From UHGV virus genome UHGV-0179089: a stretch of 12,237 bases of DNA, one strand, 5' to 3'. Shown one piece after another: positions 1 through 12,237 of this stretch (position 1 is the stretch's first letter; each line of letters opens with the position of its first letter). Made by a program: the position numbers and the translations under genes. Under the pieces are notes generated by a model. The model was not told where the DNA came from. It did not search any database and was given only the letters and a program-made list of their open reading frames with translations. Origin of the DNA: a virus.

Positions 1-801
1 GTCCGTCACGGTACACTCTGTAAAGTCGACCGCCGACAGCTTTGTCGCCGCCAGGTAAGCCCGGTCGATGGGCAGTGTGGCCGTCTCCGGCTCCGGACCG
101 AAGGCTTTTGTCAGCTCCGTGCGGAAGAAGCCGCCCAGCTGCTGCTTCATCAGGGCTTTTTTCTTCTTCTGCGCACGCTGGAATTTTGCCGAGTTTTTCT
201 CTGCAAGGTTGGCAAGTTTCATGGTGACCTGCGCCAGCGTCATATCACGTCCACTCATCGGCGCAACGGTGTGAGTAACGTCTTTTTTATTCAGTAAGAA
301 CTGGAAAGCAACCAGCGTATCGCTATTTGTGATCCGGTTTTCCGCCGTCGGGCTATGAAACAGAATGCTGATAGTCTGACCATCACTGAGCGGAATAATG
401 GCTGGCAGGACCGGCAGCCCGTTAACGTTACGCGCCCGGCCAATTTCAGCGCCGCCGATCGCTCGCGCGCCGCTCTGGGCCACATCACCCGTTTTATCAC
501 TCCCCGCAGAGATTCCTGTACCATTCAACTTCTGGTTCAATGCCCGGACAAATGCCTGCATGGTCCGGTGTAACTGCAAACGAGTAGAACTAATCGCCTC
601 CAGTAAATCCGTAGCACACCAGTGGATCGGCGTGTCATAGAAGAACGTAGCCTCGATTTCCTCCAGCGTGTTGGATTCCGTCATCAGATAGCGGTCCTCA
701 CCGGCCATTAATGCGCGATATTCATCATCAGTCACCGGCGGGGGAAGCACGTCAAGCCCAGGCTTAATCGTCACCCCTTTATTGATATTGAACTGTTCCA
801 T
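1..801 (-). CDS. Hypothetical phage protein, N-terminal 267 aa (start ATG at 801..799; C-terminus beyond left edge). Paralog of the adjacent 203-aa protein; tentatively DarA/Hdf-like (P1 antirestriction/capsid-associated family)
   Basis: Minus-strand frame checked triplet by triplet from 801 to 1 and contains no stop. Shares the motif KNSAKFQ(R/K)..K.K with the next gene. Start lies 1 nt after the stop of the upstream gene (operon-like). DarA/Hdf assignment rests on recalled P1 operon layout, not on sequence identity. Confidence 0.55.
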   Translation of the reverse strand, partial: MEQFNINKGVTIKPGLDVLPPPVTDDEYRALMAGEDRYLMTESNTLEEIEATFFYDTPIHWCATDLLEAISSTRLQLHRTMQAFVRALNQKLNGTGISAGSDKTGDVAQSGARAIGGAEIGRARNVNGLPVLPAIIPLSDGQTISILFHSPTAENRITNSDTLVAFQFLLNKKDVTHTVAPMSGRDMTLAQVTMKLANLAEKNSAKFQRAQKKKKALMKQQLGGFFRTELTKAFGPEPETATLPIDRAYLAATKLSAVDFTECTVTD

Positions 802-802
802 G

Positions 803-1414
803 TTAATTTCCTGCTTTCAGTTGCTTAAGACGGCGTTTGAGTTCGCCATTTCGGGCCTTTTCGTTATTGAGTCGGCCTGTCTCCTTATCCAGCTTCGCCC
901 GCAAATCAGTGATCTGCTGTTGATTGAAAGACACCGAGTTCTGCGCTGATTTATAAGCGGCAACCACCTGAGCATTCCGCTGTTTTGCCTCTTGCAGGCG
1001 CTGAAAGTTGGATTTTACTGCCGGTTTCTTGTCTACCGGATTGGCAACACGTTTCGCTTTGGCGATCAGTGATTTCTGGAATTTTGCGGAGTTTTTGCGG
1101 GCCGCTTGCCCCATGACGGTACCAAGCGTCTTGATATCCGGCGACTGAGCGTTAGGAATAGCTTTTCCATTCAGCCTCACAGACGATATATCGCCAGTAT
1201 CGTTTACCTGTATGGCAAGAATTTGTCCGTCGTTAAGAACCAGCTTTGCGGTTTTAACTTTAACGCCATCTTTCGTTGTTGCGCGGTTGCTGGAGTCAAC
1301 CTCAATTACCGTAACACCGGTTTTATTGATCGCCGCGATAAGGGATTTCAGCCCCTTTTCATTAACCTGGTCAAAATCGACCGTTGCATACTTATTTTTC
1401 GTCATCTGACACAT
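803..1414 (-). CDS. Hypothetical phage protein, 203 aa (probable true start at the ATG 1405..1403, giving 200 aa); tentatively Hdf-like (homolog of DarA fragment)
   Basis: ORF track. An AGGA Shine-Dalgarno sits about 8 nt upstream of the internal ATG at 1405. Lys/Ala/Gln-rich C-terminal half; shares a motif with the partial downstream ORF. Its 5' end overlaps the stop of the 147-aa ORF. Confidence 0.6.
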   Translation of the reverse strand: MCQMTKNKYATVDFDQVNEKGLKSLIAAINKTGVTVIEVDSSNRATTKDGVKVKTAKLVLNDGQILAIQVNDTGDISSVRLNGKAIPNAQSPDIKTLGTVMGQAARKNSAKFQKSLIAKAKRVANPVDKKPAVKSNFQRLQEAKQRNAQVVAAYKSAQNSVSFNQQQITDLRAKLDKETGRLNNEKARNGELKRRLKQLKAGN

Positions 1415-1835
1415 CCTGTGCGAGATTTATTACGTAACTTCTGCGGATTTGCTGAGTAACAGGGAAAATCCGATACAACGGGTTAATGAACGAGTCGCCA
1501 TGCGTAACCATGACGTTGAAATGCCACAGCCGTTCTCCTTTACCCATATATTCAGTGGGTATGTATAACCATTCGCTGTTTTCGCCCTGTTCAGCCGATG
1601 TCAGACAACGTTGCTCGCCTTCAATCACTGTCGTCGGCTTCTGAACATCGCGGATCCAATACCTGACCGTTGCGCCGCGCAAAAAAGGAAATTTGGACCG
1701 GTATTTGAACGGCACCCGGATGAAGCCCGGTTTAATTTCCACTTCGCCAAGCTCTAAATTCGTGATGTCCTTGCGTTTTAGCAAATAGCGATCGGCTAAG
1801 GCTAACGCAAGAGCGCATACACCCCAGCCAATCAT
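1392..1835 (-). CDS. Hypothetical protein, 147 aa, with a hydrophobic N-terminus; possible lysis regulator (size and position resemble P1 LydB, tentative)
   Basis: ORF track. N-terminal hydrophobic stretch MIGWGVCALALALA. Its start overlaps the stop of the 109-aa holin-like gene (ATGA at 1832-1835), suggesting translational coupling. Confidence 0.5.
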   Translation of the reverse strand: MIGWGVCALALALADRYLLKRKDITNLELGEVEIKPGFIRVPFKYRSKFPFLRGATVRYWIRDVQKPTTVIEGEQRCLTSAEQGENSEWLYIPTEYMGKGERLWHFNVMVTHGDSFINPLYRIFPVTQQIRRSYVINLAQDVSDDEK

Positions 1836-2161
1836 TTCCCGCCTCCCTTTTTCACCAAACTTGTAAGAACATTCAGAATGCTATCGATATTCACTCGTTT
1901 CATCCCTGAAATCACCTCATGACCGTTATTGCTGGCTATCGTTACCATTAAGTACGTAATTGATAACTCCCAGCCCTCGTGTTGCCCCAATAGGTACGCC
2001 ACCGCGCCAGCTGTCACTGCAACAAAGATCTCCGTAACCAATCCCAACAAATTGCCAGACTGACGACCGTCTCGGACATCCATCAGGAACGTGCCTATCC
2101 CACCAATTACTGAAAGCAGGAGCGCAATAGCAACTGGAGCTAATTCCTGTGTGTCAAGCAC
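1832..2161 (-). CDS. Small membrane protein, holin-like, 109 aa (GTG start); tentatively LydA-type holin
   Basis: Strong AGGAGGG Shine-Dalgarno 5 nt upstream of the GTG at 2161. Two or three predicted hydrophobic helices and a charged C-terminus (KKGGGK). Paralogous to the 98-aa ORF upstream. Confidence 0.6.
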   Translation of the reverse strand: MLDTQELAPVAIALLLSVIGGIGTFLMDVRDGRQSGNLLGLVTEIFVAVTAGAVAYLLGQHEGWELSITYLMVTIASNNGHEVISGMKRVNIDSILNVLTSLVKKGGGK

Positions 2162-2166
2162 AAGTT

Positions 2167-2188
2167 CCCTCCTACGTTGTCAGGAGGT
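2167..2188 (-). promoter_or_regulatory. Stem-loop that pairs the Shine-Dalgarno of the 109-aa holin-like gene with an upstream anti-SD (mRNA CCUCCU ... AGGAGG)
   Basis: Plus-strand CCTCCT (2168-2173) and AGGAGG (2182-2187) are a perfect 6-bp inverted repeat with an 8-nt loop. On the minus-strand mRNA the downstream arm is the ribosome-binding site. Confidence 0.4.
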
Positions 2189-2228
2189 AATGGTATGCAA
2201 AGTAACTTCTCAACCGGTCATTTGTTGC

Positions 2229-2525
2229 TTAAGAGGCATTTCTATTGAGGTACGAATCGATAAGCCTTTGTAACCTTTCAAGAATGAGCCTGTTATTGAT
2301 GCTGCAAATAAGAGTCACGCAATTCTGAAGACTTTCATCCATCCCCTTATATTCCGCGAAACACATGCCTATAAAGCCTGCAAGTACGGCAGAAATACAC
2401 TCGGCCAACAATTTCCTGCATGACGCTTCGTAACGTTTTTCACGAACCCCATTCAGAAACGAATGCACTCCGCCAAGGATGGATATGAGAATTATTTTTA
2501 AATCAAACATAATAATTTCCCTCAT
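2229..2525 (-). CDS. Small membrane protein, holin-like paralog, 98 aa (probable start at ATG 2510..2508, giving 93 aa)
   Basis: ORF track. GAGG Shine-Dalgarno 9 nt upstream of the internal ATG. Alignable to the 109-aa protein (S-x-[IL]-GG-x-x-x-FL ... AV-x-AG ... VT-[IL]-I-x-S-x-NN). Confidence 0.55.
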   Translation of the reverse strand: MREIIMFDLKIILISILGGVHSFLNGVREKRYEASCRKLLAECISAVLAGFIGMCFAEYKGMDESLQNCVTLICSINNRLILERLQRLIDSYLNRNAS

Positions 2526-2637
2526 GGTGAGTTAAACATCACTGGGAAACGGTATGCACTTTGTGATTTCCACACACACTGGTTTTTGTTAATTAAAATC
2601 CGCAGCTTGCTATAAATAACGATAGTGAGCAGAAAAT
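2526..2637. promoter_or_regulatory. Divergent intergenic region between the holin-like operon (minus) and the invertase (plus); candidate invertase promoter (-35 TTGTTA 2587-2592, -10 TATAAA 2611-2616)
   Basis: 112-bp AT-rich spacer between divergently oriented genes. Hexamers are 18 bp apart and about 20 nt upstream of the invertase ATG. Confidence 0.3.
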
Positions 2638-3198
2638 ATGCTAATAGGCTATGTACGCGTATCAACAAATGAACAAAACACTGCTTTGCAACGAAATGCC
2701 CTTGAAAGCGCAGGATGTGAGCTAATTTTTGAGGATAAGGCGAGCGGCAAAAAGGCTGAACGCCCTGGGTTAAAAAAGGTTCTGCGTATGCTTTCCAGAG
2801 GTGACACCCTGGTCGTATGGAAGTTAGATCGTCTTGGGCGCAGCATGCGTCACTTAGTTGTGCTGGTGGAAGAGCTGCGTGACAGAGGCATTAACTTCCG
2901 GAGTCTCACTGACTCCATCGACACCAGTACACCAATGGGGCGCTTTTTCTTTCACGTAATGGGGGCGCTGGCAGAAATGGAACGCGAACTTATCGTCGAA
3001 CGTACACGCGCTGGGCTTGATGCAGCTCGCGCGGAGGGGCGAATAGGAGGCCGTCGGCCTAAATACCCGGAAGAGACATGGCAGCAAATGCGACGATTGC
3101 TAGAAAATGGCATCCCCCGTAAACAGGTTGCAATCATCTATGATGTGGCTATGTCCACGCTTTATAAAAAGTTTCCGGCATCATCATTTCAATCTTAA
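2638..3198 (+). CDS. Serine-type DNA invertase, Hin/Gin/Cin/Pin family, 186 aa
   Basis: N-terminal catalytic signature [14 protein letters not shown]. Family-conserved blocks [63 protein letters not shown]-terminal helix-turn-helix [21 protein letters not shown]. Confidence 0.95.
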
Positions 3199-3215
3199 AC
3201 CTTGGTTTAAGAGAA
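3190..3215. other. cix/gix/hix-type 26-bp crossover site for the invertase (CAATCTTAAACC-TT-GGTTTAAGAGAA)
   Basis: Two 12-bp half-sites in inverted orientation around a 2-bp core; the inner 9 bp of each are a perfect dyad (TCTTAAACC / GGTTTAAGA). Overlaps the invertase stop codon (3196-3198) and lies just upstream of the start-less tail-fibre cassette. Confidence 0.75.
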
Positions 3216-3245
3216 CTCGGCACCAGCGGCGAAAAGATCCCCCTG

Positions 3246-5351
3246 TTGAGCACGGCTAACACATGGAGTGCACGCCAGACTTTCAACGGTGGGATCACCG
3301 GTGCGCTGACAGGGAACGCCGATACCGCAACGAAATTAAAAACAGCGCGGAAGATTAACAACGTTTCATTTGACGGTTCGGCGGACATAACGCTGACTCC
3401 TGCGAACCTTGACGTTACCAGCCTGACGTTTATGAAGCACAATGGAATAATCCCAACCACTGACAATCTTGAATCCTATGGTCCAGAAGAAAAATATCTT
3501 GGGACGTGGTCATGCCCGTCACAATCCACTGCAAAACCAGAGTCTGGTTACCCTGAAGATAAAGGAAATGGGGTTCTGGAAGTATTCAATGCTGGTCGCT
3601 TTCACTGCACACAACGCTACACCACCCGAACCGGTAATATTTACATTCGGATGCTTGATGCAGAATGGAACCCAGCCAGTCCAACATGGAGTGCATGGAG
3701 AGTTATTACAAGCGGGACTCGACCATTAAGCACGTCAATTGACCTGAATTCTTTAGGTGGTGCGGAACACCTGGGAATATGGCGCAATAGCAGTACATCA
3801 ATAGCCTCATTTGACCGTCATTTCCCGGAGGAAGGGAGTTTTGGGCAGGGTATTCTGGAAGTCTTTGAAGGCGGTCTGTATGGGAGGATGCAACGTTACA
3901 CCACCCGTAGTGGGACTATGTACATTCGCGGACTGACTGCCTCATGGGATGCAGAAAATCCACAATGGGAGGACTGGATTGCTGTTGGGTATCAGTCCAC
4001 GGGATGGACTTATTCAGGGGATCTTGATGACCTTTTAAAGCCTGGTATTTATAGCGTTACGAAACAGGCCACAAATGCACCTGTCACCGACTCTAAAGAT
4101 CTTGCTGTTGGCTCAATAGTTGAAGTGAAAAAACGTTGTGATATTGAATCGTATATCCAGACATACACGACTGTTTCAGCAACGGATGCCTATAAAAACC
4201 GGACATTTCAGCGAACCCGCGCCAGCGGTGAAACTGACTGGGGGGAATGGGCGGAAGTATACAACTCAAAATCATTACTCACTAAATTAGGTGTCGGCGG
4301 TGTTACCGACAGGTTATCCAGTCTGGACTGGCAGACCTACGACTTTATACCGGGCAGCATGATAACTGTCAGGCTTTCAGATATGACCAATATTCCCGAT
4401 GGGATGGAATGGGGCGTCATTGATACTAACCTGATAAATATCACTGTTGGCCCCAGTGAAGGCGGAGGTGGCGCCCGTTCAATGCATGTATGGCGCAGCA
4501 CTTCAAACAAAACCAACTATCGTTTTTTTACAGTCCGCTTATATGGCAATCCTGGGGAGCGTAGCTTCAATATTCGTCGGCTACCAATTATCGACGAAGC
4601 CCAGACATGGGAGGCAAAACAGACATTCAGTGCAGGCCTTTCTGGTGAACTGTCCGGCAATGCGGCTACAGCAACAAAGCTGAAAACGGCAAGGACAATT
4701 AACGGCGTAAAATTTGACGGCTCGGCAAATATTGAAGCATTTCCGCCAGGTGTTCCGTTGCCGTGGCCATCAGATACACCACCTGCGGGCTATGCAATTA
4801 TGCAGGGGCAGACGTTTGATAAGGCAGCATATCCGAAACTGGCTATAGCCTATCCTTCTGGTGTTATTCCTGATATGCGCGGCTGGACAATCAAGGGCAA
4901 ACCCGCCAGTGGGCGTGCTGTATTGTCACAGGAACAGGACGGGATTAAATCGCATACTCACAGTGCCAGTGCGTCAAATACGGATTTGGGAACGAAAACA
5001 ACCAGTTCGTTTGATTACGGCACGAAGACGGTCAGTACGTTTAATCATGGCACAAAATCAACGAACAATACGGGCAATCATACGCACACTGTCGGTGGTG
5101 TTTATGGCGGCGACTCTGTCGGTGGAAAACAGCGTGTACAGGCTTCAGGAAACAATCAGGTGTCCAGCACCGCCGGAGCGCACGCCCATACGGTGGATAT
5201 TGGTCAGCATAACCACACTGTAGGTATTGGTGCCCATGCACACACTGTGGCCCTGGGTGCGCACGGACACACCATCACGGTAAATGCTACGGGTAATACC
5301 GAAAACACCGTCAAAAACATCGCATTTAACTATATTGTGAGGCTTGCATAA
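3246..5351 (+). CDS. Tail-fibre variable C-terminal cassette (Sv/H-like receptor-binding region) with no start codon of its own; frame is open from 3168, through the crossover site
   Basis: No ATG or GTG between the upstream stop (3165-3167) and the conserved motif; the track start is a TTG. Conserved tail-fibre junction motif [13 protein letters not shown]...FDGSADI. Tail-collar-like block [21 protein letters not shown]. Five C-terminal HxH repeats. Confidence 0.85.
5076..5273 (+). repeat. Five tandem His-x-His repeats (NHTHTV, AHAHTV, QHNHTV, AHAHTV, AHGHTI) in the tail-fibre tip
   Basis: Read directly from the translation of 3246..5351. Resembles the metal-coordinating HxH motifs of T4-type fibre tips (established knowledge). 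Confidence 0.6.
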
Positions 5352-5929
5352 TGGCTTTCAGAATGAGTGCAGAAGCACAAACTATCCGCGTTTTCAATTT
5401 ACTTGATGGAACCAATGAATTTATTGGTGAAAGTGACGCATATATTCCGCCGCATACAGGTCTGCCTGCAAACAGTACAGATATTGCACCGCCTGATATT
5501 CCTGCTGGTTATGCAGCCGTTTTCAATGCAGATGAAATGAAATGGGAACTGATGGAAGACCATCGCGGAAAGACCGTCTATGAAACGAAAACGGGAGCAG
5601 CCATTTATATTTCTGAACTTGGCGTATTACCTCCAGACGTGACAGCCATTTCCCCGGATGGGGATTATCAGAAATGGAACGGCAATGCGTGGGTGAATGA
5701 TGAGAATGCAGAGCGTGATGCGCTTGTCAGAGCGGCTGACTCTCAGAAGAAAGAGCTGATTGCATATGCAGGTGAAATTATTGCCACGCTGCAGGATGCT
5801 GTCGATTTAGATATGGCTACCGAGGAAGAAAAGTTAAGCCTGACACACTGGAAAAAATACCGTGTGCTACTGAATCGCGTTCAGCCGGAAAATGCCCCGG
5901 ATATTGAATGGCCGAAAATGCCGCAATAA
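5351..5929 (+). CDS. Tail-fibre assembly chaperone (Tfa / Mu U / P2 G family), 192 aa
   Basis: Start overlaps the tail-fibre stop (ATAATG). N-terminal motif [44 protein letters not shown] and C-terminal [11 protein letters not shown]...IEWPKMPQ are typical of this family. Confidence 0.9.
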
Positions 5930-6496
5930 ATCGTATTAGAACTGGTGTGAGATTAGTCATCTATGGCACAGAGTAAAACCTAATCTGACAGTCCACTCTG
6001 TGCCAGCAGCAATTGCGTGGCCAAAGGAAACACTGCCAGCACAATCAGGTATTGATATGTCGATGTAGTCCTGAATGGCTGGCAACTCACCTAACCTAAT
6101 GAGCTCCCGTTCAACCGGAACATAAGGTCAATTCTGTTGTATGATTTTTCCCTTTTTGAAAGAATAATAGCGATAAATGACGAATTTTTGGAACCCTGCT
6201 TGTTGCTGAAGATACGTTGTCACAATGGAAGAACGTGACTTACATCGAAGTGATGGGAGTATCCGTCAAGATCTAATACACGAAAATAGAAGTGAAAAGG
6301 TACGCTGCGAGGGCGCTCGCCTGTCCGCTCTGTCTGCGAAGAAATAATTTATTTTAGGCCACCCAAGCGGCTTGTTTAAGATTAGTACTCTTATCTAGAA
6401 AACTCGTAACTGACTTGAATGTATGGTAACATGATAATAACAAGGTTCGAACATCCGCCAATGCAATATACTTAGAACATATAAATTGAATCTGAC

Positions 6497-7378
6497 ATGG
6501 ATAAAAATAAATTGGTTAAATTTTCACTAGTCGAAAACGCCTTGGATTCTATTGAGCTAGGTTTGGAGTATTTTTACGAAGCAAAAAAAGAATTCACGCC
6601 ACGTAAATATAAACAATGCCTAATTAATATGTTTCATGGCTCGGAGTTAATCCTGAAAGAAATATTGAGTAGGATAAATATTATACTCATATTCGACAAA
6701 AACTCTTTATTTAAAATTTGCAAAGATCCTTTAAGTCCTACTGGGGATGAGTTGTATAAATTAAAATCAATAGATATTAATAGCTTATGCGATGAGGTTG
6801 TGAAGCATTATCCGGACGAGTTTAAAGGAAAGCTTAATATTGTCAAGGGCCTAGCTAGAGAAAGAAACAAGATACAGCATTTTGCAATCGAAATATCACC
6901 AGAGATATTATCAAGGTTACTCTCAAGTCTTTACATTGATGTTTTTAAGCCATCCTTTAAAATAATTTTATCTGAGCTTGATTATGTTAATCAATACAAT
7001 TCGCTGATTGAAAGGCAGATTATAGGTGCTGAAAAGACATTTCTTAAAATACAAGGTGATACTGATAACTATTTAGCTCTTTGTCCAAAGTGCGAGAACC
7101 ATTCTCACTTTATATTGTACAAAGGTACGGGTTACCCTGTTGAGACCTATTGTATTTGCTGTGATTATAAAAATACAGATATTGACATATCAGATTATCT
7201 GGTATGTCCTGAATGCGGATTCCCGTCATTGATATTTGATGAAAAAAATAATGCAGGAGTCTGCCTCAACGAGAAGTGTTACTATGGAATACAAGGTGGA
7301 TTCGTAGAAATGGAACCATGTGAAAATTGTGATGGCTTTATTATTGAAGGTTCATGCCCAGAATGTGATACGGATTGA
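6497..7378 (+). CDS. AT-rich cargo gene, hypothetical 293-aa protein: helical N-terminal region with an R-x4-H (HEPN-like) motif plus a C-terminal triple CxxC zinc-ribbon tail; candidate defence or abortive-infection effector
   Basis: Single long ORF in an island much more AT-rich than its flanks. Motif RERNKIQH at aa 121-128. Cys pairs CPKC, CICC, CPEC, CLNEKC, CENC, CPEC between aa 196 and 291. Occupies the slot between tfa and FI where P2 carries Z/fun. Confidence 0.75.
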   Translation: MDKNKLVKFSLVENALDSIELGLEYFYEAKKEFTPRKYKQCLINMFHGSELILKEILSRINIILIFDKNSLFKICKDPLSPTGDELYKLKSIDINSLCDEVVKHYPDEFKGKLNIVKGLARERNKIQHFAIEISPEILSRLLSSLYIDVFKPSFKIILSELDYVNQYNSLIERQIIGAEKTFLKIQGDTDNYLALCPKCENHSHFILYKGTGYPVETYCICCDYKNTDIDISDYLVCPECGFPSLIFDEKNNAGVCLNEKCYYGIQGGFVEMEPCENCDGFIIEGSCPECDTD

Positions 7379-7555
7379 GATTACTCGACGATTGGTGCAA
7401 CTGCATGCTTGCAAAACTCTATGGTGCTAACGGAGTCAATTACTGAATTGTTGTTACCCATTGACGGATAGATTTCGGTTGCTTAACTGTGAATGGAGTA
7501 GCATGACAGAGTTTTTTACCAGTCCGATTAGCTTCTATCAAATAGCAGTTCGGAC

Positions 7556-7584
7556 AGGCGGGCTGATTGCCCGCCTTTTCTTTA
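7556..7584 (+). terminator. Rho-independent terminator downstream of the cargo gene
   Basis: 8-bp GC-rich stem AGGCGGGC/GCCCGCCT with a 5-nt loop, followed directly by TTTTCTTT. Confidence 0.7.
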
Positions 7585-7601
7585 TCTGTTGTTTCATCCC
7601 C

Positions 7602-7616
7602 TGACCAGCCAGGTCA
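7602..7616 (+). promoter_or_regulatory. 15-bp palindrome TGACCAGCCAGGTCA upstream of FI; candidate late-promoter activator site (P2 Ogr-type)
   Basis: Perfect dyad centred about 70 nt upstream of the FI ATG, where P2-type late promoters carry an activator dyad. It does not match the TGT-N12-ACA consensus exactly. Confidence 0.3.
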
Positions 7617-7679
7617 AATAGCGTCTCATGCTCTGCACAACAGAAAATAGTTGCACCCATTAACCACGGAGTTAAACGG

Positions 7680-8870
7680 ATGAGTGACTATCATCACGGC
7701 GTGCAGGTGCTGGAGATTAACGACGGCACCCGCGTCATTTCCACCGTATCAACCGCCATTGTCGGCATGGTCTGCACAGCCAGCGATGCGGATGCGGAAA
7801 CCTTCCCCGTCAATAAACCGGTGCTGATTACCAATGTGCAGAGCGCGATTGCAAAGGCCGGTAAAAAAGGCACGCTGGCGGCGTCGTTACAGGCCATCGC
7901 TGACCAGTCAAAACCGGTCACCGTTGTCGTACGTGTGGAAGACGGCACCGGCGAAGACGAAGAAACGAAACTCGCGCAGACCGTTTCCAATATCATCGGC
8001 ACCACCGACGAAAACGGTCAGTACACCGGACTGAAAGCCCTGCTGGCGGCGGAGTCGGTAACCGGTGTTAAACCGCGTATTCTCGGTGTGCCGGGGCTGG
8101 ATACCAAAGAGGTGGCTGTTGCACTGGCATCCGTCTGTCAGAAGCTGCGCGCTTTCGGGTATATCAGCGCATGGGGCTGTAAAACCATTTCCGAGGTGAA
8201 AGCCTACCGTCAGAATTTCAGCCAGCGTGAGCTGATGGTCATCTGGCCGGATTTCCTCGCATGGGATACGGTCACCAGTACCACCGCCACCGCGTATGCC
8301 ACCGCCCGTGCGCTGGGTCTGCGTGCCAGAATCGACCAAGAGCAGGGCTGGCATAAAACGCTGTCCAACGTCGGGGTAAACGGTGTTACCGGCATCAGTG
8401 CGTCCGTATTCTGGGATTTGCAGGAGTCCAGCACCGATGCTGACCTGCTGAACGAGTCAGGTGTCACAACGCTGATTCGCCGTGACGGTTTCCGCTTCTG
8501 GGGTAACCGTACCTGCTCTGATGACCCGCTGTTCCTCTTTGAAAACTACACCCGCACCGCGCAGGTGCTGGCCGACACGATGGCTGAGGCGCACATGTGG
8601 GCGGTGGACAAGCCCATCACCGCAACGCTGATTCGCGACATCGTTGACGGCATCAATGCCAAATTCCGTGAACTGAAAAGCAACGGTTATATCGTGGATG
8701 GCACATGCTGGTTCAGTGAAGAAGCCAATGATGCGGAAACCCTCAAGGCCGGAAAACTGTATATCGACTACGACTATACCCCGGTGCCTCCTCTCGAAAA
8801 CCTGACCCTGCGCCAGCGTATTACTTCAAGATACCTGGCAAGTCTGGTCACCTCGGTTAACAGCAATTAA
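7680..8870 (+). CDS. FI: Contractile tail sheath protein (P2 gpFI-like), 396 aa
   Basis: Length and sequence (MSDYHHGVQVLEINDGTRVISTV...) match P2 FI closely from memory; GGAG Shine-Dalgarno upstream; followed by FII. Confidence 0.95.
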   Translation: MSDYHHGVQVLEINDGTRVISTVSTAIVGMVCTASDADAETFPVNKPVLITNVQSAIAKAGKKGTLAASLQAIADQSKPVTVVVRVEDGTGEDEETKLAQTVSNIIGTTDENGQYTGLKALLAAESVTGVKPRILGVPGLDTKEVAVALASVCQKLRAFGYISAWGCKTISEVKAYRQNFSQRELMVIWPDFLAWDTVTSTTATAYATARALGLRARIDQEQGWHKTLSNVGVNGVTGISASVFWDLQESSTDADLLNESGVTTLIRRDGFRFWGNRTCSDDPLFLFENYTRTAQVLADTMAEAHMWAVDKPITATLIRDIVDGINAKFRELKSNGYIVDGTCWFSEEANDAETLKAGKLYIDYDYTPVPPLENLTLRQRITSRYLASLVTSVNSN

Positions 8871-8882
8871 GGAGCCTGACCG

Positions 8883-9401
8883 ATGGCAATGCCGCGCAAA
8901 CTCAAGTTAATGAACGTCTTTCTGAACGGCTACAGCTATCAGGGCGTCGCGAAGTCCGTCACGCTGCCAAAACTGACCCGTAAGCTCGAAAACTATCGCG
9001 GTGCGGGGATGAACGGCAGCGCACCGGTAGACCTCGGCCTTGATGATGATGCGCTGTCAATGGAGTGGTCGCTCGGGGGCTTCCCGGATTCGGTTATCTG
9101 GGAACTTTACGCCGCAACTGGTGTGGATGCCGTGCCGATTCGTTTTGCAGGCTCTTACCAGCGTGACGATACCGGCGAAACGGTGGCCGTCGAAGTGGTC
9201 ATGCGTGGGCGTCAGAAAGAAGTCGATACCGGCGAGGGGAAACAGGGAGAGGATACCGAATCGAAACTCCCGGTGATTTGTACTTATTTCCGGCTGACGA
9301 TGGACGGTAAGGAGCTGGTCGAAATTGACACCATCAACATGATTGAGAAGGTGAACGGCGTCGACCGGCTGGAGCAACACCGCCGAAATATCGGCCTGTG
9401 A
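8883..9401 (+). CDS. FII: Tail tube protein (P2 gpFII-like), 172 aa
   Basis: MAMPRKLKLMNVFLNGYSYQG... and a 172-aa length; GGAG Shine-Dalgarno 8 nt upstream; conserved P2 order FI-FII-E-T. Confidence 0.95.
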   Translation: MAMPRKLKLMNVFLNGYSYQGVAKSVTLPKLTRKLENYRGAGMNGSAPVDLGLDDDALSMEWSLGGFPDSVIWELYAATGVDAVPIRFAGSYQRDDTGETVAVEVVMRGRQKEVDTGEGKQGEDTESKLPVICTYFRLTMDGKELVEIDTINMIEKVNGVDRLEQHRRNIGL

Positions 9402-9408
9402 TTTTCAT

Positions 9409-9429
9409 CCGGTCAGCCAGGCTGACCGG
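9409..9429 (+). other. Perfect 10-bp inverted repeat CCGGTCAGCC-A-GGCTGACCGG between FII and E; possible attenuator hairpin or protein-binding site
   Basis: Seen directly. No T-run follows, so it is not a canonical intrinsic terminator. Confidence 0.3.
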
Positions 9430-9457
9430 TTAACCCCGATTCAGAAGTGAGAAAACC

Positions 9458-9733
9458 ATGAACAAAGAAAATGTGATTACCCTGGACAATCCGGTCAAGC
9501 GTGGTGAGCAGGTTATCGAACAGGTCACGCTGATGAAACCCAATGCGGGGACGCTGCGCGGTGTCAGTCTGGCTGCGGTCGCAAACTCCGAAGTCGATGC
9601 ACTGATTAAAGTGCTGCCGCGCATGACGGCACCGATGCTGACTGAGCAGGAGGTCGCCGCGCTGGAGCTGCCTGACCTTGTGGCGCTGGCCGGTAAGGTG
9701 GTCGGTTTTTTGTCGCCGAACTCGGTGCAGTAA
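9458..9733 (+). CDS. E: Tail assembly chaperone gpE (P2-like), 91 aa
   Basis: 91-aa ORF directly upstream of the tape-measure gene; carries the slippery heptamer near its 3' end. Confidence 0.9.
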   Translation: MNKENVITLDNPVKRGEQVIEQVTLMKPNAGTLRGVSLAAVANSEVDALIKVLPRMTAPMLTEQEVAALELPDLVALAGKVVGFLSPNSVQ

Positions 9734-9885
9734 CGTTTCCGAAAAATCTCTCGGTCGATGACCTGATGGCGGATGTGGCAGTGGTATTTCACTGGCCGCC
9801 ATCAGAACTGTATCCCATGAGCCTGACCGAACTCATCACATGGCGCGAAAAGGCGCTCCGGCGAAGCGGAAACACGAATGAGTAA
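9458..9885 (+). CDS. E': gpE+E' fusion chaperone made by a programmed -1 frameshift at TTTTTTG (9706-9712); the -1 frame stays open to the TAA at 9883-9885, overlapping the T start
   Basis: Slippery heptamer T_TTT_TTG lies in the E zero frame. The -1 frame was translated by hand from 9709 to 9885 and has no stop; it ends ...WREKALRRSGNTNE*. Confidence 0.8.
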
Positions 9886-12237
9886 CAATGTAAAATTACA
9901 GGTATTGCTCAGGGCTGTTGACCAGGCATCCCGCCCGTTTAAATCCATCCGCACAGCGAGTAAGTCGCTGTCGGGGGATATCCGGGAAACACAAAAATCA
10001 CTGCGCGAGCTGAACGGTCACGCATCCCGTATTGAGGGATTTCGCAAGACCAGTGCACAGCTCGCCGTGACTGGTCATGCACTTGAAAAGGCTCGGCAGG
10101 AAGCCGAAGCCCTTGCCACACAGTTTAAAAACACCGAACGTCCGACCCGTGCTCAGGCGAAAGTGCTGGAATCCGCAAAGCGTGCGGCGGAGGACTTACA
10201 GGCGAAATATAACCGCCTGACGGATTCCGTTAAACGCCAGCAGCGGGAACTGGCCGCTGTGGGAATTAATACCCGCAATCTTGCACATGATGAGCAGGGA
10301 CTGAAAAACCGTATCAGTGAAACCACCGCACAACTTAACCGGCAGCGTGACGCGCTGGCGCGTGTCAGTGCGCAACAGGCAAAACTTAACGCAGTAAAAC
10401 AGCGTTATCAGGCCGGCAAGGAACTGGCCGGAAATATGGCCTCAGTGGGCGCTGCCGGTGTGGGGATTGCGGCGGCGGGAACGATGGCCGGAGTTAAGCT
10501 GCTGATGCCCGGTTATGAGTTTGCGCAGAAAAACTCAGAATTACAGGCCGTGCTCGGAGTGGCAAAAGACTCCGCCGAAATGGCCGCGCTCCGCAAACAG
10601 GCGCGCCAGCTCGGCGACAACACCGCCGCCTCGGCGGATGATGCAGCCGGTGCGCAGATTATCATTGCGAAAGCCGGTGGGGATGTTGATGCCATTCAGG
10701 CGGCAACGCCGGTCACGCTGAATATGGCGCTGGCGAACCGCCGCACGATGGAAGAAAACGCCGCCCTGTTGATGGGGATGAAATCCGCCTTTCAGCTTTC
10801 AAACGATAAGGTCGCTCATATCGGGGATGTTCTCTCCATGACGATGAACAAAACCGCCGCCGATTTTGACGGCATGAGCGATGCGCTGACCTATGCCGCA
10901 CCTGTGGCAAAAAATGCCGGTGTCAGCATTGAAGAAACCGCCGCAATGGTCGGGGCGCTGCATGATGCAAAAATTACCGGTTCAATGGCGGGGACGGGAA
11001 GCCGTGCCGTGTTAAGCCGCCTGCAGGCACCGACGGGAAAAGCATGGGATGCACTGAAAGAGCTTGGTGTGAAAACCTCAGACAGTAAGGGAAACACCCG
11101 GCCAGTATTTACCATTCTGAAAGAAATGCAGGCCAGCTTTGAGAAAAACCGGCTCGGTACTGCCCAGCAGGCTGAATACATGAAAACCATTTTCGGGGAG
11201 GAGGCCAGCTCAGCCGCCGCCGTGCTGATGACTGCCGCCTCAACCGGAAAGCTGGACAAACTGACCGCTGCGTTTAAAGCCTCAGACGGAAAGACCGCAG
11301 AGCTGGTAAATATCATGCAGGACAACCTCGGCGGTGACTTTAAGGAGTTTCAGTCCGCTTATGAGGCTGTGGGGACTGACCTGTTTGACCAGCAGGAAGG
11401 CGCACTGCGTAAGCTCACGCAGACGGCCACAAAGTATGTGTTAAAACTCGACGGCTGGATACAGAAAAACAAATCACTGGCGTCAACCATCGGCATCATT
11501 GTCGGTGGTGCACTGGCGCTGACTGGTGTCATCGGTGCCATTGGCCTCGTAGCCTGGCCGGTTATCACCGGCATCAATGCCATTATCGCGGCAGCAGGCG
11601 CAATGGGGGCAATTTTCACGACGGTTGGCAGTGCCGTTATGACGGCCATCGGGGCGATTAGCTGGCCGGTAGTGGCCGTGGTGGCCGCCATTGTCGCCGG
11701 AGCGTTACTTATCCGTAAATACTGGGAGCCTGTCAGCGCATTCTTTGGCGGTGTGGTGGAAGGGCTGAAAGCGGCATTTGCGCCGGTGGGGGAACTGTTC
11801 ACGCCACTTAAGCCGGTGTTTGACTGGCTGGGTGAAAAGTTACAGGCTGCGTGGCAGTGGTTTAAAAACCTGATTGCCCCGGTCAAAGCCACCCAGGACA
11901 CCCTGAACCGTTGCCGTGACACGGGCGTCATGTTCGGGCAGGCACTGGCTGACGCGCTGATGCTGCCGCTTAATGCGTTCAACAAATTACGCAGCGGCAT
12001 TGACTGGGTACTGGAAAAGCTCGGGTTCATCAACAAAGAGTCAGACACACTTGACCAGACAGCCGCCAGAACTCATGCCGCCACGTATGGCACCGGTGGT
12101 TATATTCCGGCGACCAGCTCTTATGCAGGTTATCAGGCTTATCAGCCGGTTACGGCACCGGCTGGCCGCTCTTATGTGGACCAGAGTAAAAACGAATATC
12201 ACATCAGCCTGACGGGTGGTACTGCGCCGGGGACACA
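9878..12237 (+). CDS. T: Tail tape measure protein (P2 gpT-like), N-terminal about 786 aa; 3' end beyond the right edge
   Basis: ATG at 9878, frame open to the window end. Coiled-coil-like N-terminus and a Gly/Ala-rich hydrophobic block (GIIVGGALALTGVIGAIGLVAWPVITGINAIIAAAGAMGA) typical of tape measure proteins. Confidence 0.9.
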   Translation, partial: MSNNVKLQVLLRAVDQASRPFKSIRTASKSLSGDIRETQKSLRELNGHASRIEGFRKTSAQLAVTGHALEKARQEAEALATQFKNTERPTRAQAKVLESAKRAAEDLQAKYNRLTDSVKRQQRELAAVGINTRNLAHDEQGLKNRISETTAQLNRQRDALARVSAQQAKLNAVKQRYQAGKELAGNMASVGAAGVGIAAAGTMAGVKLLMPGYEFAQKNSELQAVLGVAKDSAEMAALRKQARQLGDNTAASADDAAGAQIIIAKAGGDVDAIQAATPVTLNMALANRRTMEENAALLMGMKSAFQLSNDKVAHIGDVLSMTMNKTAADFDGMSDALTYAAPVAKNAGVSIEETAAMVGALHDAKITGSMAGTGSRAVLSRLQAPTGKAWDALKELGVKTSDSKGNTRPVFTILKEMQASFEKNRLGTAQQAEYMKTIFGEEASSAAAVLMTAASTGKLDKLTAAFKASDGKTAELVNIMQDNLGGDFKEFQSAYEAVGTDLFDQQEGALRKLTQTATKYVLKLDGWIQKNKSLASTIGIIVGGALALTGVIGAIGLVAWPVITGINAIIAAAGAMGAIFTTVGSAVMTAIGAISWPVVAVVAAIVAGALLIRKYWEPVSAFFGGVVEGLKAAFAPVGELFTPLKPVFDWLGEKLQAAWQWFKNLIAPVKATQDTLNRCRDTGVMFGQALADALMLPLNAFNKLRSGIDWVLEKLGFINKESDTLDQTAARTHAATYGTGGYIPATSSYAGYQAYQPVTAPAGRSYVDQSKNEYHISLTGGTAPGT

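Follow-up and report, generated by a model that had tools for sequence, protein, structure and literature searches.

A P1-type cixL crossover site at the cin stop codon of a gut-metagenome contig that continues into P2-like tail genes

Does the short inverted repeat at the 3' end of the invertase gene in this virus contig belong to a known DNA inversion system, and if so, where is the partner site with which it would recombine? The window, i.e. the whole stretch of 12,237 nucleotides that was analysed, is a complete metagenome contig (NODE_839, ERZ1310408) with a coverage of 2.18x. The best explanation, which we regard as very probable, is that the repeat is the cixL site of a P1-like (Punavirus) plasmid prophage, and that its partner cixR is missing because the contig switches to P2-like DNA.

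The element covers positions 3190-3215 and reads, in the letters quoted in the initial annotation, CAATCTTAAACCTTGGTTTAAGAGAA. As proposed there, it has a two-half-site architecture with a 2-bp core, namely two 12-bp inverted half-sites around TT (CAATCTTAAACC-TT-GGTTTAAGAGAA), and 9 of the 12 positions in each arm are symmetric. The inner 20 bp, which had been described as a dyad apart from the core, indeed form a perfect 9+2+9 arrangement at 3193-3212, TCTTAAACC-TT-GGTTTAAGA, and symmetry is lost at the tenth position. The overlap with the stop codon was likewise found as described, the TAA at 3196-3198 of the 186-aa open reading frame 2638-3198 being located inside the site. The two features are as follows.

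3190-3215, no strand assigned: cixL-type crossover site, 12+2+12 bp, 25/26 identical to the annotated and published cixL of P1/P7
3202-3203, no strand assigned: core dinucleotide TT, the putative point of strand exchange, aligning with the 'crossover site within cixL' of P1/P7

A perfect 9+2+9 dyad occurred only once in the whole window, at 3193-3212. When the window was simulated with a first-order Markov model, at least one such dyad was obtained in 113 of 2000 simulations (about 6%); by itself, the dyad is only mildly unusual and not rare. This frequency is what speaks for reading it as a chance palindrome, as an intrinsic terminator of cin or as the operator of another protein, a reading that we consider extremely improbable given that the window site shares 25 of 26 bases with a site that was defined experimentally and occupies the homologous position. 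The weight of the site comes from its identity to a known cixL and not from its symmetry. A terminator or RNA hairpin was also considered and rejected: none was predicted at the dyad, no T-run follows it, and the fold was no better than that of shuffled sequences (z = -0.06).

The initial annotation had called for an alignment to published cixL, cixR, gix, hix and pix sites, and in this alignment cixL was the best match. Among the cixL, cixR and other Din-family sites tabulated in PMC3241671 (Table 3), identity to the window site amounted to 25/26 for cixL, 21/26 for cixR, 20/26 for pixL, 19/26 for both hixL and bixR, 18/26 for gix and 15-18/26 for mix. The P1/P7 site, CAATCCTAAACCTTGGTTTAAGAGAA, differs from the window site solely at position 3195 (C>T, with T in the window). 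This change is synonymous in cin (TCC to TCT, both Ser), and with T at this position nine bases of the cin-side half-site mirror the inner half-site perfectly. A scan of the window with the published cixL, allowing up to three mismatches, recovered 3190-3215 alone, with one mismatch, and none of 200 shuffled controls contained any match.

The position of the site agrees with this assignment. In the GenBank records of P1 (NC_005856) and P7 (AF503408), the 'recombination site cixL' is annotated across the cin stop codon, and the annotated crossover point forms the 5' end of both the invertible C segment and the start-less Sv' cassette. In a megablast search against phage records, P1, P7, D6 and relatives matched over cin plus about 150 bp beyond. 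The identical 26-mer was present in every related contig that extends to the position of the site. It was absent from the IMG/VR viral contigs, which means merely that this allele is unrepresented there. The earlier suggestion of a Hin/Gin/Cin/Pin-type site laid out as in P1 cin/cixL is thus borne out by both the match and the P1/P7 annotation.

The site shares with cixL of P1, P7 and D6 (Punavirus) the TT core, the location across the cin stop codon and the position 5' of a start-less S-gene cassette, and the likeness to P1 extends to Cin (98.4%), to the enhancer (69/72) and to the upstream genes darA, hdf, lydB, lydA and lydC. It differs from P1 cixL in having T instead of C at 3195, which gives the window site its perfect 9+2+9 symmetry. 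In the lineage of the window, the inverted repeats flanking the segment are about 155 bp long with 11 mismatches; by contrast, the inner flanks in P1 are fully identical over the 300 bp compared. Furthermore, the variable cassette of the window is of a P2-H-like type, neither Sv nor Sv' of P1, and the contig is without a partner site. At the level of the site, the only differences from P1 are one synonymous base and the different, P2-H-like variable cassette.

With gix/Gin of Mu, hix/Hin of Salmonella, pix/Pin of e14 and mix/Min of p15B, the window site has in common the 12+2+12 layout and the AAACC..GGTTT motif of the inner half-sites, and it fits the dix consensus in the inner half and the core. 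In all these systems the invertase gene is adjacent or internal, and alternative expression of tail fibres (or flagellin) is controlled. Mu differs in that gix has a GA core and not AA/TT, the Salmonella hin gene is located within its own segment, and Min of p15B acts upon six sites. What the window contains is the cin/cixL system of P1, carried by a close relative of that phage, and as such the site is already known.

The invertase gene and the P1-type genes to its left are listed below.

151 onward, minus strand: darA, 5' part (Pfam DarA_N)
803-1414, minus strand: hdf
1392-1835, minus strand: lydB (Pfam LydB)
1832-2161, minus strand: lydA
2229-2525, minus strand: lydC
2638-3198, plus strand: cin, serine DNA invertase of 186 aa (Pfam Resolvase, E 4e-51; HTH_7, E 1.5e-16)
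2656-2727, no strand assigned: recombinational enhancer (by homology) in the 5' part of cin, 69/72 identical to P1

The cin product matched the PHROG DNA invertase family and was identical to P1 Cin at 183 of 186 residues, the three substitutions being Q144P, K157N and V172M; Q144P adjoins the DNA-binding arm. Exactly the same protein was found on at least 20 P1-like contigs, several of which are P1-like genomes of 89-96 kb. The P1 counterpart of 2656-2727 is annotated as 'enhancer of Cin-mediated C-segment inversion', and the window appears to have a conserved, putatively Fis-dependent enhancer in cis. The Punavirus gene order darA-hdf-lydB-lydA-lydC-cin-C segment was found in the left part of the window only, and Pfam holin matches were among those obtained for this P1-type region. 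Positions 151-3355 were 96-97% identical to P1 (97% over 151-2525) and 99.7% identical to L004, the closest complete P1-like relative of the window phage, and over 151-3253 the window was 100% identical to L004 and to a second related assembly, L007. A source-called gene of 79 aa on the minus strand (3149-3388) covers the cix site together with the beginning of the following cassette without matching any family; overlapping cin and the fibre frame, it is probably spurious.

At the extreme left of the contig, positions 1-150 are foreign to P1 darA, the join lying around 140-175. Up to '...KFQRAQKKKKAL' ('...AQKKKKAL') the DarA frame agrees with P1 and L004, after which it continues into an unrelated tail of 50 aa. 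No DNA match to 1-150 was found in E. coli genomes or phages, and two protein relatives of the 50-aa tail were found in 5.8 billion sequences. One of these two lies on a 601-bp contig that runs into LSLIHI, which we take to be a translated Nextera adapter. This left join probably marks a second point of mis-assembly, at a short repeat rich in A and G.

On the right-hand side, the fibre frame runs through the site without interruption, and from 3204 to the ATG at 3432 it contains neither ATG nor GTG and a single TTG, at 3246. The site had been placed at the 5' boundary of a 'start-less' fibre cassette, a description that fits these observations.

3204-3566, plus strand: start-less variable cassette of a P1-type S gene, 5' part, in frame with the constant part Sc only after inversion

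The cassette was identified by comparison with the relatives. Window positions 3199-3760 match the L004 S gene (1222 aa) with 100% identity, on its inner side next to cixR. The site lies at the junction of the constant and variable parts of the tail-fibre gene, and inversion at this point keeps the reading frame.

The initial annotation had also advised a search for a second copy of the site in inverted orientation. Probing the 12.2-kb window with published cixL and cixR, with the site's own sequence, with the AAACCNNGGTTT core and with the dix consensus recovered 3190-3215 and no second copy. In the complete relatives L004 and L005, both of which span the whole C segment and carry identical Cin and cixL, the expected partner was present: their cixR, TTATCCAATACCTTGGTTTAAGAGAA, is inverted, lies 4.76-4.94 kb from cixL and is identical in sequence to cixR of P1 and P7, so that P1 and the complete relatives of the window phage share the same partner site. 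The TT core is found in cixR of L004, L005, P1 and P7 as well. Probably, the window leaves the P1-like genome before cixR is reached, and inversion is not demonstrable on the window molecule because it contains no partner site.

The relatives differ from the window in the cassette that follows cin. In L004, and in L012 from another sample, a different cassette (A) is located next to cin and diverges from the window at 3254. In the window the cin flank is joined to cassette B, which in L004 sits at cixR. The exchange relative to L004 is confined to the 55 bp of 3199-3253, which contain the core 3202-3203. Judged from these junctions, window and L004 would thus be one and the same phage, differing in the orientation of the C segment. 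Such a switch of cassettes is consistent with strand exchange by Cin but is not proof of it; the flip relative to L004 could also be a choice of path by the assembler through the exact 55-bp repeat 3199-3253.

Might the site then be a decayed or orphan relic, fixed in one orientation in a defective prophage, with Cin inactive or without a partner? The lack of a partner site in the window and the three substitutions in Cin relative to P1 would fit such a history, yet we consider it very unlikely. The cin gene is intact, its exact product is encoded on those 20 or more contigs, including the 89-96-kb P1-like genomes with both cix sites, the enhancer is conserved, and both cassette arrangements occur next to the same cin. 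The change at 3195, moreover, shifts the outer half-site towards rather than away from the dyad consensus.

The boundary of the segment is also visible in the way in which related assemblies end. Six assemblies (L007, L008, L009, L010, L011 and L013) terminate at the window equivalents of 3197, 3217, 3228, 3228, 3253 and 3253. The inverted repeat of the segment starts at 3199, and the six ends fall at or just after this position. Breaks of this kind, here at 3197-3253, are the usual signature of an invertible-segment boundary. As six independent assemblies end near the start of the inverted repeat, the segment boundary therefore systematically breaks short-read assemblies.

Invertases of the Hin/Gin/Cin/Pin group act as dimers at two sites together with an enhancer bound by Fis, and make staggered cuts at the 2-bp core. 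Rotation of subunits and religation then leave the intervening segment inverted. In P1, one orientation of the C segment gives Sc-Sv with U and the other gives Sv' with U', and host range is changed (bioRxiv 10.1101/2022.07.24.501295, and the GenBank annotations of P1 and P7). For the phage of the window, Cin dimers would bind the 12-bp half-sites of cixL and of the inverted cixR inside the tail-fibre gene S, and, with Fis on the enhancer within cin, the complex would cut both sites at the TT core and exchange strands. The C segment of about 4.8 kb would be inverted, and either of the two start-less Sv/U cassettes would be fused in frame to the constant Sc, resulting in a switch of host range. 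The sequences compared here provide the site, its position, the synteny, the intact cin, the enhancer sequence, the in-frame cassette, the alternative junctions and the cixR of the relatives; Cin binding, cleavage and Fis dependence are presumed from homology to the known systems.

Why the window ends without cixR became apparent in its right part. The switch from P1-like to P2-like DNA begins about 360-560 bp past the site, and the features from there to the end of the contig are the following.

3567-3760, no strand assigned: 194-bp stretch common to the P1-like S gene (L004) and the P2-like H gene by exact identity; the switch of parent lies inside
3761-5351, plus strand: P2-type tail-fibre gene H, C-terminal part, 98-99% identical to L003, L015, L018, L022 and Peduovirus P24A7b (Pfam Collar)
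5351-5929, plus strand: P2-type fibre-assembly gene, G-like (Pfam Caudo_TAP)
7680-8870: P2 sheath gene (Pfam Phage_sheath)
8883-9401: P2 tube gene (Pfam Phage_tube)
9458-9733: P2 gene E
9878 to the contig end: P2 tape measure gene

The order of these genes is that of P2-like prophages, where a full H gene of 873 aa comes before them. From 3409 onward, the window is 96-98% identical to gene H of P2-like prophages and of Peduovirus P24A7b. A breakpoint between P1-like and P2-like DNA at 3401-3409, where the megablast matches end, was rejected, since the cixR side of L004 runs identically through this region. A 50-mer spanning 3401-3409 had no match in genome contigs, a result that informs on the L004-type cassette only. 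Nine positions between 3412 and 3566 separate L004 from all P2-like H genes, and the window has the L004 base at all nine. P1-specific bases end at 3566 and P2-specific bases start at 3761; from there on, each position at which L004 differs has the P2-like base in the window. The intervening 194 bp correspond to 14765-14958 of L004 (minus strand) and to 4159-4352 of the P2-like L003.

Between the fibre-assembly and sheath genes, in a gap that is a known slot for accessory genes in P2-like phages, lies an open reading frame of 293 aa (6497-7378, plus strand). It has no Pfam domain, matches the PADLOC candidate defence family PDC-S64 over its N-terminal half (E 2.6e-22) and belongs to phrog_20819, of unknown function; its position is kept in several P2-like prophages. 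Compared with L022, the stretch 3567-7500 has two mismatches, and 7500-12237 differs by 1-5%, in blocks, from all retrieved relatives. None of the relatives retrieved was identical across the whole P2-like tail region, and the blockwise differences in 7500-12237 reflect the mosaicism that is ordinary for P2-like prophages.

That P1-like and P2-like phage groups exchange fibre modules is established. The S gene of L004 and the P2-like H genes share about 350-470 bp at 96% identity or more (block 3409-3880, 96-100%), which is consistent with such exchanges. The 194-bp stretch within this block is a natural fibre-gene mosaic between unrelated phage groups, and with that a trap for assemblers. What distinguishes the window from known fibre mosaics is that the similarity to P2 goes on past the fibre cassette through 6.3 kb of P2 tail genes. 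This is not a cassette swap, and mis-assembly best explains the arrangement.

The switch from P1-like to P2-like DNA is likely an assembly chimera rather than a real recombinant. It falls within a long exact repeat between two co-occurring elements. The hybrid fibre reading frame was found on this contig alone in searches covering 153 billion gene positions and 15 billion proteins, and in its 90% protein cluster all other listed members are ordinary P2-type H proteins of 873 aa or shorter, mostly partial. The combination of the P1-type base at 3566 with the P2-type base at 3761 did not occur in any of the metagenome, genome or viral collections searched, with a positive control included, and none of the phage, plasmid and complete E. 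coli records reaches across the hybrid region. Many of the 'partial' members of the cluster, with lengths of 459-757 aa, fit truncation at the ends of isolate contigs, and assemblies of E. coli genomes, too, may often break in the H gene.

Other samples contain the two presumed parents side by side. In ERZ1311710, the same P1-like phage as in the window (NODE_155, coverage 6.06) and a P2-like prophage (NODE_937, coverage 6.13) were assembled as separate contigs, and the P2-like contig of this assembly (L019) stops at the window equivalent of 3684, inside the 194-bp stretch. ERZ28656476 contains a P1-like contig matching 3103 bp of the window with 100% identity and a separate P2-like contig with an intact 873-aa H.

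Were the contig real, homologous recombination in vivo via the 194-bp stretch would have joined a P1-like plasmid prophage to a resident P2-like prophage, for example by integration of the plasmid into the chromosome. The cixL of the window would then still be a functional Cin site, with its partner elsewhere in the cointegrate. No frame break occurs at the switch, a perfectly identical stretch of 194 bp is long enough for RecA, and the S gene of L004 already holds a stretch of P2-like H, so that an exchange of this kind has occurred in nature. In addition, the contig is listed for three samples, and independent assemblies would make the junction real; we think, however, that the three listings are mirrored copies, as the hybrid protein is present on one contig from one source. 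The coverage of 2.18x, the uniqueness of the hybrid in all collections searched, the separate parents in the sister samples with a contig break within the shared stretch, and the second unexplained join at the left end of the contig all stand against real recombination, to which we assign a small though appreciable probability. With the chimera as the preferred reading, cixR is missing from the window because of the likely chimeric switch at 3567-3760.

Taken as a P1-type system, the locus represents the textbook Cin/cix host-range switch of P1 in a gut-metagenome relative with an allelic difference of one base, and it carries little biological weight by itself. It is a caution that boundaries of invertible segments and shared fibre modules are spots where short-read metagenome assemblies break or are mis-joined, and that support at the level of reads is needed before an 'orphan' crossover site beside foreign tail genes is taken as a new arrangement. 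A real junction would document recombination between a phage-plasmid and a chromosomal prophage via a shared receptor-binding module, and would place an active cin-cixL in front of a P2 fibre cassette. In that case, inversion or deletion by Cin of long segments between cixL and a distant cixR would be conceivable, as would transfer of the P2 receptor-binding cassette onto the P1 fibre.
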